Sequence record: PZ229304.1
Length of the DNA stretch: 64,000 bases
DNA from: a phage
Strand: one strand, 5' to 3'
Part shown: positions 10,922-15,008 of the stretch, piece by piece
Position numbering within the stretch: position 1 is the stretch's first letter
Layout: each line of letters begins with the position of its first letter
Program-made: the position numbers and the translations under genes
The notes under the pieces: generated by a model
What the model was told of the DNA's origin: nothing
What the model saw: only the letters and a program-made list of their open reading frames with translations
The model's database searches: none

Positions 10922-11122
10922 TTAATCCCCTTCATATTTAGGTAAAGGCATATATGCCACAATAGGAGGGTAATCAAAGTGAAAATGATGGTTCACCACA
11001 ATAATCTTACCAGACATACTTTTATGCACTTCACAATACCCTTTTCCACCATCTTCCATTACCACCACATACTCACCTAGTGGGATATCGTATGGATCTT
11101 CTACTTTTACCCATTCTGTCAT
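10922..11122 (-). CDS. small hypothetical protein
   Basis: Trimmed to ATG at 11122, which overlaps the stop of an upstream 50-aa ORF (ATGA coupling). Confidence 0.3.
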   Translation of the reverse strand: MTEWVKVEDPYDIPLGEYVVVMEDGGKGYCEVHKSMSGKIIVVNHHFHFDYPPIVAYMPLPKYEGD

Positions 11123-11286
11123 TTTGTAAACTCCTCGTAGTAAGGTAAAGCCTTGATCAGTTGTTCTGAAGTGCCATTTTGCACCCACGTAACACCATTG
11201 TCAACAGAAACATACCCTTTTTTGTCAATAAATTTACGCAGACAGCCAGTGAACTTATTTTTGTAGATAACCATGTTTACTCCTTG

Positions 11287-11640
11287 TTACATCCACAGAT
11301 TATGAAAATACTTAGCGAACAAAATGCGACCTTCTAAACGATCTTGCCGCTGTTTTTCATTAACTTCTTCTGGTGGAGTTGAGTCCTTAAAAGAAGACTC
11401 CATTTTTTCAAGAATTTCTAACCAGTGTTCTGCTGCTCGTTCTTCCATATAAGGTAGATAGTCACCTTTAGCGTGTGGGTACATCCGACGAAGTAACCCA
11501 CTAGGAATTTTAACATTGTTTGTGGCTATCACTTTTGCACGATACGCAGAAAGTGCGTTGTAGATCAGTTTACTTAGTGTCACATCCAGATCAAGAAGAT
11601 CACTCTCTTCAAATTGAATTTCATCGTGTACAATTTTCAT
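11287..11640 (-). CDS. hypothetical protein
   Basis: 117-aa track ORF. Confidence 0.45.
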   Translation of the reverse strand: MKIVHDEIQFEESDLLDLDVTLSKLIYNALSAYRAKVIATNNVKIPSGLLRRMYPHAKGDYLPYMEERAAEHWLEILEKMESSFKDSTPPEEVNEKQRQDRLEGRILFAKYFHNLWM

Positions 11641-11924
11641 CGTGCCTTCTCCCGATCTGCATCTAATTTCAACAAGAAAGCTGTATACTCTTCCGAACCT
11701 TGGTGTAAAAACATGTGATAAGAGCTTACCAGTTTCTTCGTTGTCGTATAACGTTCCATTTCCCCAACAACACCTCCACCTAGTGTGTAGAGCACAATAC
11801 CTTCAACTCCAACATAGGTTACTACTTCAACCAAATCTGTGTTATCCCAATAGTAGTTAGGTGACACAATAAGATCGCCCACTGCCAGTTTAATGTTTGC
11901 TACTTCATCTTGTGAATAGTACAT
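11637..11924 (-). CDS. hypothetical protein
   Basis: 95-aa track ORF, 4-nt overlap with downstream gene. Confidence 0.45.
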   Translation of the reverse strand: MYYSQDEVANIKLAVGDLIVSPNYYWDNTDLVEVVTYVGVEGIVLYTLGGGVVGEMERYTTTKKLVSSYHMFLHQGSEEYTAFLLKLDADREKAR

Positions 11925-11936
11925 TTTGTTCTCCTC

Positions 11937-12227
11937 TCACATTAAGACACGTTTTGTATTGATGGGGGCATTGTCGAACATGTTTATCACTTTGTCAAGT
12001 TTGTGTATTAACTCGTTCGTAATGTTCCACTCTTTGTATGATCTCCATTGCTTCTTATTCTCACCTACCTGGTGTAAAACTTTTATTGGTGCATTCAAAC
12101 GTACATTGCGTTCTTTGTCCTCTTCAAAAGAGGCTAACCATTTTTCGTTATGTCCATGAACAGCAATAATAATGCCAAAACCATCAAAAGTTTCTGTAAT
12201 ATTCTTAGTTGCTAGTGTGATGTTCAT
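11937..12227 (-). CDS. hypothetical protein
   Basis: 96-aa track ORF; first gene of the minus block, divergent from the plus island. Confidence 0.45.
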   Translation of the reverse strand: MNITLATKNITETFDGFGIIIAVHGHNEKWLASFEEDKERNVRLNAPIKVLHQVGENKKQWRSYKEWNITNELIHKLDKVINMFDNAPINTKRVLM

Positions 12228-12346
12228 ATCTAACCTCTTTTGTTACGATGCACACAGAGTACCAGAAATTAATTTCAGATCAAGTATTGACATACTGTTT
12301 TATTGTGCTAATCTTAATGCATACACAAATGAGAGGAGATAAACGA

Positions 12347-12898
12347 ATGCAAAACATCGATCTTACTTGGATAGAAGCCAAAGAAGCAATGTTAAAAGGT
12401 AAACGCGTTAAACATAAATACTTTTGCGAAGGAGAATGGTTTGAAATGCGTAACCGATCCCTTATAGATGAAAAAGGGAATGACATGCAACAATGGTTCA
12501 AAAATGAAATTTGGCAGGGAACAGGTTGGTCTGTAGTTGAAGAGCAGCCTAGCTCAAGCGCACTGTTTAGCCCTATTATGTATCGCGTTATCGGTGCTTT
12601 AGTTGTTGATCACGGGATTGCAGTGGAAAAAGAATGCTGGGAAGAGGTATCTTTTTTCAACCTGGCTTCTTATGCAAAAAGCCATATGCACTTGTTTGAA
12701 GAAGGGGATGAATTTGTTCTTCGTATGCGATATGGCAAAGAATTCAGATTACCACTTGATAACGATGTAGACACTGTTGTAAAATGGTTAGCAGAGCATT
12801 ACGCTTACGATGCAATTTGTGGTCGCAGCTTCGGCAACGAACGCTGGGACATGATTTGTGAAAAATATGATTTTGAGCCGGAGTACGGAGTTTTATAA
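12347..12898 (+). CDS. DUF2829/Tad2-like N-terminal domain fused to an uncharacterised C-terminal domain
   Basis: Trimmed to ATG 12347 (GAGAGGAG RBS). N-terminus MQNIDLTWIEAKEAMLKGKRVKHKYF..GEWFEM fits the DUF2829 pattern (L.W..A..A...GK.V) by recollection, not by alignment. Confidence 0.4.
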   Translation: MQNIDLTWIEAKEAMLKGKRVKHKYFCEGEWFEMRNRSLIDEKGNDMQQWFKNEIWQGTGWSVVEEQPSSSALFSPIMYRVIGALVVDHGIAVEKECWEEVSFFNLASYAKSHMHLFEEGDEFVLRMRYGKEFRLPLDNDVDTVVKWLAEHYAYDAICGRSFGNERWDMICEKYDFEPEYGVL

Positions 12899-13149
12899 TG
12901 TTAAGTATCAAACCTAAAATGATAACAGAAGACGAAGCAGACTTTATTTTCAAATGTGGACGTGTATGGAGAGAATTCACAAAAGGAAATGAAGTGGTTG
13001 TTGTTGTCGAACACAAGATATCTATCCAGGATCTGTTTGGACAATATGTTGATGTTATTAAATTAGGTATTGACAAGGGTTTAGTTGAGGTGTTAACATT
13101 AGATCAAGTTGAAGCAGAGCACCTCGATAAAGTGGTGGTTGAATTTTAA
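12898..13149 (+). CDS. hypothetical protein
   Basis: 83-aa track ORF, start overlaps upstream stop. Confidence 0.4.
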   Translation: MLSIKPKMITEDEADFIFKCGRVWREFTKGNEVVVVVEHKISIQDLFGQYVDVIKLGIDKGLVEVLTLDQVEAEHLDKVVVEF

Positions 13150-13169
13150 AATACAGACGGGAGAAAGGT

Positions 13170-13343
13170 ATGAGTTTCTTTGTTACAGTATTTATGGCTA
13201 TCTGGATTGTAGTCTCACTCGTTCTTTTCCTGGTGGGTTGTCTGGAAGAGATTAAGAAAGCGGTTATTTGCGGTTTCTTTGGCTTTATTATCTCTCCTGC
13301 CTGGATGTGGTTCTTCATTATGATTGGTTTCCTTAAAAGGTAA
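13170..13343 (+). CDS. small membrane protein (57 aa)
   Basis: Own translation MSFFVTVFMAIWIVVSLVLFLVGCL..; GGGAGAAAGG RBS; below track cut-off. Confidence 0.35.
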   Translation: MSFFVTVFMAIWIVVSLVLFLVGCLEEIKKAVICGFFGFIISPAWMWFFIMIGFLKR

Positions 13344-13357
13344 GTGAGGAATAAAGA

Positions 13358-13795
13358 ATGAGTAAAACAAACGCAATCGCAGATAAAGCAACGGATGTAC
13401 TTCTGAACATGGTTAACGTCACTATTCAAACAATGAGTGATGTTGTAGAGTTTGGAAAACAACAAATTCCAGAAGTAATCCATCAATTATTAGTGTGGAA
13501 AGCAGTATCCGCAGGTTTATGGCAACTTTTTAGTATTTGCTTTATGTTTATTACTTTTATTGCTGTGCGGAACCTCGTAAAAGCAATTAAAGATAAAGAA
13601 TGCCTGTGGTCACGAGATCGCTATGGTGAAGTATCTCCTTTACCTATTGTTGGCCTTGTTGTCTGTGCTTTCTTTTTCTTTTTAGGATTTGTTATTTTCT
13701 TTTCGAATTTTGATTGGCTAAAAATCATTATTGCACCAAAAGTGTATCTGATTGAATTTGCTGCTGATTTAATTCGTTCATCTCAACAAAAATAA
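13358..13795 (+). CDS. membrane protein (predicted TM helices)
   Basis: Hydrophobic segments AVSAGLWQLFSICFMFITFIAV and IVGLVVCAFFFFLGFVIFF. Confidence 0.5.
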   Translation: MSKTNAIADKATDVLLNMVNVTIQTMSDVVEFGKQQIPEVIHQLLVWKAVSAGLWQLFSICFMFITFIAVRNLVKAIKDKECLWSRDRYGEVSPLPIVGLVVCAFFFFLGFVIFFSNFDWLKIIIAPKVYLIEFAADLIRSSQQK

Positions 13796-13806
13796 AAGGG
13801 GTTAAA

Positions 13807-14934
13807 ATGAAATACACGATTTATGGTGATATTGTAAGTGTAAATAAAGATATGGGCGTGGAATCTAACTATCTTCCACCTGGATTCTATACTGTTAGTC
13901 GTGATCCCCTTGGCAATTACTTTTTAAGCCGTGGTAATCTAACAGGTGTACCGGATGTTCTGTATGGTGAAACAGAAAAACGAGCAAATCACGTTATTCG
14001 TACATTCCATCGCCGGAGTGCACAAGGTAAAAATACAGGCTTGCTTCTGACAGGAACTAAGGGCAGTGGTAAAACTATGTTAGCCAAACTCATTAGTCGT
14101 GACCTTGTAGAAGAAGGTATTCCAACTATTATGGTTACTCAAGCCTACAGTGATGCTAATTTCATTGAACTTATTAGTAAGATCACCGACAAAGCAGTGA
14201 TTATTTTTGACGAATTTGATAAAGTATATGAGAAGAAACAAGATCAAGAAGCACTTCTCACTTTGTTAGATGGTACTGGCAGTGGTAATAAACTGTTTAT
14301 TCTAACTAAAAACAGTGGCTTTATCTCTGAATTCTTTCTAAATCGTCCTAGTCGTGTGTTTTATAATTTTAATTATGATAAAATCTCACTAGAAACTATG
14401 ATTGACTATTTAGATAAAAACCTGGATAACAAAGCACACTTGGATAATTTCCAAAGGCTTTGGGATGTAAGTTTAGAGTTGTCCTTTGATGTGATCCAAG
14501 GTATAGTAGAAGAACTTAATTTCTACCCTGATTTATCCTTTAAAGAATGCATCTCTATGATGGGCGTTTCTTTGGGTGGTGGTAATAAGTGGGATATCAG
14601 CAGCGTTGTTATTAATGGGAAACTTCAGAAAGTTAGCTGGGTATCTAGTTGGCATAACTTCACACCTGCAATCTTTTTAGGTGGCTCGTGCACACTAGAC
14701 GTGTACTTGTCATCTCCAAGTGATGCAGACTCTAAAGAAGCCCTTGCTAATAGCTCTTACGTGGTTTTTGATGATGAAGGAGATGCTCGAATTCCATTGA
14801 ATGCGACAAAAATGAAAGCAGATCTTATTACAGGCGGTAAAATCGTTGTGTTTAGTGATGATCCAGAAGATTCTTTCCGTATTGTTCTGGAACCAACTAT
14901 CACCAATGGTGCAACTTTGGCAAGTGTGTTTTAA
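13807..14934 (+). CDS. AAA+-type ATPase with uncharacterised C-terminal domain
   Basis: Walker A GTKGSGKTMLAKL and Walker B VIIFDEFDK. Confidence 0.6.
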   Translation: MKYTIYGDIVSVNKDMGVESNYLPPGFYTVSRDPLGNYFLSRGNLTGVPDVLYGETEKRANHVIRTFHRRSAQGKNTGLLLTGTKGSGKTMLAKLISRDLVEEGIPTIMVTQAYSDANFIELISKITDKAVIIFDEFDKVYEKKQDQEALLTLLDGTGSGNKLFILTKNSGFISEFFLNRPSRVFYNFNYDKISLETMIDYLDKNLDNKAHLDNFQRLWDVSLELSFDVIQGIVEELNFYPDLSFKECISMMGVSLGGGNKWDISSVVINGKLQKVSWVSSWHNFTPAIFLGGSCTLDVYLSSPSDADSKEALANSSYVVFDDEGDARIPLNATKMKADLITGGKIVVFSDDPEDSFRIVLEPTITNGATLASVF

Positions 14935-14949
14935 GTAAGCCAGCAAATA

Positions 14950-14974
14950 AAAACCCGCTTCGGCGGGTTTTCTT
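14950..14974 (+). terminator. intrinsic terminator
   Basis: AACCCGCTTCGGCGGGTT hairpin followed by TTCTTG. Confidence 0.6.
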
Positions 14975-15008
14975 GCATTAATGCCAGATTTAATAAGAGG
15001 AGTAGTAG

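Follow-up and report, generated by a model that had tools for sequence, protein, structure and literature searches.

In the window analyzed here, the whole 64,000-nt stretch of record PZ229304.1, the portion from 11000 to 15000 showed 98% identity to Escherichia phage phi92 and related phages (Justusliebigvirus, Stephanstirmvirinae). The open reading frame at 12347..12898 on the plus strand was present and encodes 183 aa plus a stop codon; the product is the orthologue of Phi92_gp217 (98% identical) and is called a "hypothetical protein" in all annotations. An earlier note, made from the letters alone, had read this frame as a DUF2829/Tad2-like domain fused to an extra C-terminal domain. The N-terminal motif it quoted (residues 6-23, LTWIEAKEAMLKGKRVKH) was found as described, and its estimate of about twice the length of a stand-alone Tad2 agreed with the 183 aa of this product versus the 89 aa of SPO1 Tad2. 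We divided the gene into an N-domain with a minimal, predicted Tad2/DUF2829-like fold (12347..12544, +; residues 1-66), a linker of sequence QPSSSALFS (12545..12571, +; residues 67-75), and an α/β C-domain belonging to PHROG 11295 (12572..12895, +; residues 76-183).

With regard to the start codon, position 12347 was favored over 12248 because a Shine-Dalgarno sequence, AGGAG (12334..12338, +), lies 8 nt 5' of the ATG at 12347 and is also annotated for Phi92_gp217, the homologous ATG is annotated in six of the seven relatives inspected (phi92, Paula, PaulScherrer, JohannJBalmer, BME3, and arall), the stand-alone homologues of the N-domain share the start position MQNI/M..LTW, and the extension 12248-12346 would fall within a divergent intergenic region. 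The annotation of SD2, the remaining relative, places the start 30 nt further upstream. A candidate early promoter could be read in the same intergenic region (12287..12314, +), with a perfect -35 hexamer TTGACA (12287-12292), a 16-nt spacer, a TG at 12306-12307, and a weak -10 element TAATCT (12309-12314); it was absent from the consensus scan list because the -10 element matches at only three of six positions. At the other end of the gene, the stop codon overlaps the ATG of the Phi92_gp218 orthologue (12898..13149, +; PHROG 4868) in the sequence TAATG (12896-12900). The same overlap occurs after the stand-alone C-domain gene in the phages outra and nepoznato, and its presence behind both fused and stand-alone C genes suggests that translation may be coupled with that of gp218.

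The surrounding genes gave several further observations. At the position of Phi92_gp215, the frame at 11637-11924 (-) encodes 95 aa, compared with a shorter annotated CDS in phi92, and matched Phage_tudor (PF24144, E 8e-25). The gp216 homologue at 11937-12227 (-) matched DUF7325 (E 4e-20) and showed a weak, sub-threshold resemblance to LAGLIDADG endonucleases (E 0.0013). Four genes downstream, 13807-14934 (+) encodes a 375-aa AAA+ ATPase (PHROG 2376), which in relatives is labeled as ATPase, 'FtsH-like protease', or 'Zn metalloprotease'; in Klebsiella phage DP, the stand-alone N-domain gene lies directly 3' of an ATPase gene. The records matching this phi92-like E. coli phage at ~98.5% identity over 4 kb included five under the name 'Campylobacter phage' (A150, A145, C3, A110a, and a fifth; e.g., MG065639, MG065645, and MG065656), and the host attribution of these five looks doubtful.

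Profile comparison split the protein into two parts. Residues 1-69 matched phrog_3474 (E 2.1e-25, profile positions 2-63 of 64) and phrog_22208 (E 1.5e-27), and residues 73-182 matched phrog_11295 end to end (E 2.9e-50, profile positions 1-109 of 110). The members of these uncharacterized families are stand-alone proteins of 64 aa (PHROG 3474/22208) and 110 aa (PHROG 11295), whereas here the two form one polypeptide. An exhaustive HMMER search of 1.84 billion representatives returned 45 proteins, each of which corresponded essentially to the N half only or the C half only, save for P0004, a 5991-aa adhesin-type repeat protein with 15 matching stretches (E 2.5e-17). P0004 was rejected as a chance match because its CxGEW...DxCGN repeat, present in 15 copies, mimics residues 26-53, so that its significance reflects inflation by the repeat rather than homology. 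Word-indexed homology searches yielded small sets of 1, 9, and 15 proteins. Neither the complete protein nor either of its halves had a meaningful match in Pfam, NCBIfam, or PADLOC, and a phmmer search of PDB sequences returned ribosomal protein L30 and L-ribose isomerase, which were discarded as chance matches (E>0.2). The two-module make-up is not due to chance, and other phages encode each module on its own.

AlphaFold2 gave an unusable model from the single sequence (pLDDT 47), but a pLDDT of 86.8 with a 24-row alignment (A4) that held homologues of both halves; MAFFT put C-domain homologues onto the N-domain in two of the three alignments (A2 and A5), and A4 alone was usable. The resulting model comprised two domains and a disordered linker, with pLDDT <50 at residues 67-71. 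The modeled N-domain had a helix at 8-16 and strands at 21-23, 32-35, 38-41, and 59-63, and the modeled C-domain had a helix at 76-88, five strands, and helices at 141-156 and 165-173, with pLDDT mostly >90. A Foldseek search of predicted viral structures (BFVD) found stand-alone versions of both halves, and the matches included proteins named "DUF2829 domain-containing" (63 aa, 32% identity) and "Thoeris anti-defense 2-like"; Foldseek against the PDB gave no significant match.

We then compared the N-domain with Tad2. Pfam PF11195 (gathering score 25 bits) did not match the full protein or residues 1-71 even at E<=10, a home-built Tad2 HMM had no match within the window, and PF11195 reached only sub-threshold matches in five of 30 N-family representatives (best E 0.0028); by sequence, the N-domain is not a PF11195 member. 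When the N-family profile was searched against PDB sequences, the sole match was SptTad2 (E 0.7). For profile-profile comparison, SPO1 Tad2 (gp34.65) was taken from the SPO1 genome via its published W25/N26 positions, 80 Tad2 homologues were collected from IMG/VR, and 12 more came from a supplementary table of proteins chosen for experimental testing. HHalign of the N-domain family gave 94.6% probability against 14 studied Tad2 proteins (P 6.7e-8, all 65 columns) and 82-87% against the 80+ Tad2 homologues, and the controls (N-domain against C-domain, and C-domain against Tad2) gave 0.2%. From these comparisons we concluded that the N-domain is a distant, miniaturized Tad2/DUF2829 homologue, consisting of the core helix and antiparallel sheet without the β2-β5 insertion. 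The reading of a DUF2829/Tad2-like N-terminus followed by an extra domain was thus upheld by the contrast between 94.6% and 0.2% and by the PHROG split, and the model shows the N-terminal helix and antiparallel sheet of a DUF2829-like fold, the absence of which the earlier note had named as evidence against it.

SPO1 gp34.65, HgmTad2/AcrIIA7, ModTad2, and SptTad2 have an N-terminal helix followed by an antiparallel sheet, as does the N-domain, and the model superposed at 1.4 Å over 56 residues. SPO1 Tad2 and the N-domain have in common the landmarks A10/A11, G17/G18, V20/V21, the aromatic positions W25/F26 and W73/W50, and a C-terminal W85/W61-x-[IV], and Tad2 and the product of this gene are alike small phage accessory proteins. 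However, the N-domain measures only ~62-66 aa compared with 80-105 aa for Tad2, and the missing β2-β5 insertion is the part that in HgmTad2 forms a cyclic-dinucleotide site and bears helix α2 of the dimer interface. Because this tetramerization element sits in the missing insertion, the oligomeric pocket may not form in the N-domain.

The residues that contact the ligand were conserved only in part. SPO1 Tad2 binds gcADPR through W25, N26, W73, and D79 (10.1101/2023.05.01.538930), and HgmTad2 uses W21, N22, G23, W87, and D93 (PMC10680739). According to the HHalign alignment and the family counts, W25 of SPO1 Tad2 corresponds to F26, which is invariant in 30 of 30 N-family representatives; N26 corresponds to C27 (T in 15, C in 6, and S in 3 of the family); and W73 corresponds to W50, present in 23 of the 30. 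No acidic residue is aligned with D79, E54 (17 of 30) being one or two positions off, and both the diphosphate-binding GWNGKG loop and the β2-β5 insertion are absent. The N-family has its own conserved set (A11, G18, H23, F26, E30, E42, G44, W50, W56, Q57, G60, and W61), and it keeps the acidic residues E30, E42, and E54 instead of the loop, N26, and D79. Thus, the scaffold and two aromatic positions are kept and the polar chemistry differs. The N-domain may bind another ligand or interact with another sort of partner.

The model showed the C-domain as an independent α/β domain with a predicted topology like that of type III secretion chaperones and YbjN. In related phages, this domain is a regular gene of its own at the corresponding position. 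Its fold resembled that of type III secretion class I chaperones and YbjN-like proteins (AvrPphF ORF1 1s28, ExsC, SycT, DR_1245, and AmyR), and the arrangement of five consecutive strands followed by two helices was also frataxin-like. However, identity to the chaperones and YbjN-like proteins was 7-11% for most of the closest matches, without a profile-level relationship, and profile searches of Pfam, NCBIfam, PADLOC, and the PDB found no relative and no membership in a chaperone or YbjN family. In addition, the setting is a phage without a secretion system, unlike that of type III chaperones, which also lack the invariant polar K-S-H/R-Y/G-R motif of the C-domain. In particular, K111, S112, H113, R127, Y128, G159, R160, and W167 were near-invariant across C homologues of 25-60% identity, and in the model K-S-H and R-Y form the two ends of one β-hairpin and are therefore probably adjacent in space. 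This motif suggests a putative binding or catalytic site in the C-domain. Several known counter-defense proteins were considered as possible identities of the C-domain and rejected: neither the C-domain nor 10 of its homologues matched PF13876 (Acb4) or PF21825 (Sequestin) at E<=1 (E<=10 for the query), Sequestin is moreover α-helical, Lockin folds differently and does not occur in the sequenced phage genomes of INPHARED, and Atd1 is a MazG-like enzyme.

We addressed the origin of the fusion by comparing this locus with relatives in which the two genes are separate. In nepoznato (Phapecoctavirus), a 147-aa gene on the opposite strand begins with the N-domain, which takes up ~68 residues, and its remainder ends in a basic tail (KGKGHNKLKKGKKK); an intergenic region is shared between this N gene and a plus-strand cluster that ends in a stand-alone C gene and the gp218 homologue. 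In blastn comparisons, 11583-12541 matched nepoznato in reverse, with both flanks forward, and 11292-11640 and 11930-12448 matched outra (Justusliebigvirus) in reverse, again with forward flanks. In addition to gp214, gp215, and gp216, all on the minus strand, the inverted segment (11287..12541) takes in the intergenic region and the part of the gene that codes for the N-domain. The breakpoint relative to nepoznato lies at about codon 68 of the N gene, directly after the domain. Comparison of the junction at the C gene with outra, nepoznato, and KP13-26 showed that the stand-alone gene's ATG (ATGTTTAGC) has become a CTG (12563-12565) within the linker, that its AGGAGG ribosome-binding site was lost, and that seven linker codons (EQPSSSA, 12542-12562) match neither the parental N gene nor the 5' region of the C gene in its stand-alone form. 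Among the unfused Stephanstirmvirinae loci, N and C were divergent neighbors in six of seven, one of them with only 38% identity in the C-domain; in the seventh, KP13-26, the sequence ended too soon upstream to show an N gene. These alignments showed that the fusion arose in the phi92 lineage through an inversion of ~1.3 kb, which placed the opposite-strand N gene directly before the C gene, and that the C gene was afterwards left without a start codon and a ribosome-binding site of its own. The inversion also cut off the basic extension with which the ancestral N-domain gene had ended. The locus is a clean case of gene fusion by local inversion.

The distribution of the two halves was determined by tblastn against 50,697 phage records. 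The full-length arrangement, counted as a single tblastn piece covering >=80% of the fusion protein, occurred in 32 records only, all of them phi92-like and >=90% identical. The C half alone was found in ~85 records, mostly of the Phapecoctavirus type, and the N half in ~400, including Klebsiella jiaodaviruses, Vequintavirinae, Ounavirinae, Erwinia phages, and the phi92-like phages. The fusion is a single recent event in one genus and not a recurrent architecture. A scan of IMG/VR with the C family gave only five contigs, which were Stephanstirmvirinae-like, and the neighbors of remote C-domain homologues, namely small unknown genes and one nearby DNA methyltransferase, were uninformative. The N-domain also occurred in other architectures. 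The proteins P0003, P0012, P0014, and P0044, as well as the nepoznato gene (L005, 600-1043, -), carry a C-terminal extension with a conserved, strongly basic tail (KGKGHNKLQKRKKK); P0015 is a tandem duplication; and P0039 and P0019 have N-terminal extensions. The mini Tad2-like domain is a mobile module that has entered several architectures.

Tad2 proteins are homotetrameric sponges for Thoeris signals with pockets at the protomer interfaces. Taken together, members of the family block CBASS and Pycsar as well as Thoeris types I, II, and IV (10.1101/2025.08.24.671296). The earlier note had called a Tad2 fusion unusual, but Tad2-Acb4 and Tad2-Sequestin fusions are frequent and one of them blocks two systems; Sequestin itself was found via its fusion to Tad2 (10.1101/2025.07.12.664507). 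Acb4-Tad2 of Pasteurella phage Pm86 and Tad2-Sequestin (PF21825) combine a Tad2-type domain, a flexible linker, and a second small domain that also occurs alone (10.1101/2025.07.12.664507), and the same organization was observed here. As a fusion, it is new only in the partner domain, PHROG 11295 with its predicted α/β chaperone-like fold being neither PF13876 nor PF21825. The novelty lies in the miniature Tad2-like module, which Pfam does not see, together with its partner, Tad2 fusion as such being already known. In the portions of the supplementary sequence tables of the two sponge surveys that could be consulted, the motifs of either domain were absent (10.1101/2025.07.12.664507; 10.1101/2025.08.24.671296).

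We tentatively proposed, with confidence a little short of even, that the fusion is a counter-defense protein, with an N-domain that would soak up a signal with altered specificity and a C-domain that would form a second, independent module. On this proposal, a two-module accessory protein would be expressed from the early, divergently transcribed region of the phi92-like phage. The Tad2-like module would oligomerize and sequester an immune signal derived from nucleotides, of the kind used by Thoeris, CBASS, or Pycsar, with a specificity probably unlike that of SPO1 Tad2, given that the pocket is conserved only in part. The C module would add a separate activity, either the binding of another ligand through the conserved K/H/R/Y/W cluster or the binding of a protein, and such a dual function would parallel Tad2-Acb4 and Tad2-Sequestin. 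Guilt by association is weak in this case because the fusion arose once in one genus and the remote C homologues have no N gene nearby.

It is also conceivable, though rather unlikely, that the Tad2-like fold has been repurposed, such that PHROG 3474 would bind a protein or another non-nucleotide ligand and the whole would serve as a host-takeover factor or as an inhibitor unrelated to signaling immunity. This would fit the replacement of the canonical phosphate- and ribose-contacting residues and the conservation of three acidic residues instead, and AcrIIA7, a DUF2829 protein, was originally described as an inhibitor of Cas9 (10.1101/2023.05.01.538930); however, in the publications consulted, all Tad2-family proteins of characterized mechanism are small-molecule sponges (10.1101/2025.08.24.671296; PMC10680739). 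For the C-domain, whose fold neighbors include protein-binding chaperones, immunity proteins, and the MotA C-terminal domain, the same explanation holds that the chaperone-like fold may be an adaptor that binds proteins, candidate partners including gp218, whose translation would be coupled, consistent with the conserved stop/start overlap. Nevertheless, KP13-26 has an extra gene between the C gene and the gp218 homologue, and the invariant polar motif has no counterpart in type III secretion chaperones.

The selection acting on the two halves bears on a further explanation, which we consider unlikely: that function resides in the C-domain and that the inversion produced the fusion as a side effect that is tolerated, with an N-domain that drifts and contributes little beyond a promoter, a ribosome-binding site, and a start codon. 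The C-domain is far more constrained, with pairwise dN/dS of 0.04-0.16 among eight genomes compared with ~0.2-0.4 for the N-domain (counts are small, with 1-9 non-synonymous and 1-7 synonymous differences per domain), and it is conserved as a stand-alone protein across Stephanstirmvirinae and beyond. Moreover, the N gene of outra (L004, 1461-1628, -) is a 55-aa remnant in which the central strands are deleted and which is joined straight to a short basic tail, KGKKK; this decay indicates that the Tad2-like module seems dispensable in the outra lineage. The loss of its own start codon and Shine-Dalgarno sequence makes the C-domain dependent on the translation signals of the N-domain, in keeping with this explanation. 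On the other hand, dN/dS of the N-domain is still well below 1, the N-family core residues F26, E30, E42, W50, W56, and W61 are kept in all eight genomes compared, and the fusion is intact at 183 aa in all eight, with no frameshift or stop, besides the 32 records that hold it as a single piece of >=80%. Both halves are under purifying selection, and the strong constraint on a C-domain that has no start signals of its own implies that the fused polypeptide is the functional form.

An enzymatic C-domain that breaks down or alters an immune signal or a metabolite, with the fusion coupling capture by the Tad2-like module to turnover, is very unlikely: the near-invariant K111, S112, H113, R127, Y128, R160, and W167, probably brought close by the single β-hairpin, are compatible with an active or binding site, but searches of Pfam, NCBIfam, and the PDB matched no enzyme family, the nearest folds are those of non-enzymes, and no catalytic triad or metal-binding motif is recognizable. 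No sign was found here of the added enzymatic function envisaged in the earlier note; the partner has a predicted chaperone-like fold with a conserved polar motif.

Returning to the proposed counter-defense protein, Tad2 fusion partners have already yielded one sponge family, Sequestin, which makes the conserved C-domain a concrete candidate for counter-defense. Tractable carriers of the fusion are the BASEL phages PaulScherrer (bas60) and JohannJBalmer (bas62), which grow on E. coli K-12, and natural controls are provided by the phages with split genes and by outra with its decayed N gene. In its boldest and, in our judgment, improbable form, the proposal would be that PHROG 11295 comprises unrecognized binders or degraders of immune signals, that PHROG 3474 is a miniature branch of Tad2 with a new specificity, and that a single inversion gave the phi92-like phages a dual inhibitor. 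If this were true, a sponge of the Tad2 type would have gone unannotated in ~400 sequenced enterobacterial phages, and if the mini Tad2-like family is an active sponge, anti-defense surveys based on Pfam would miss it.
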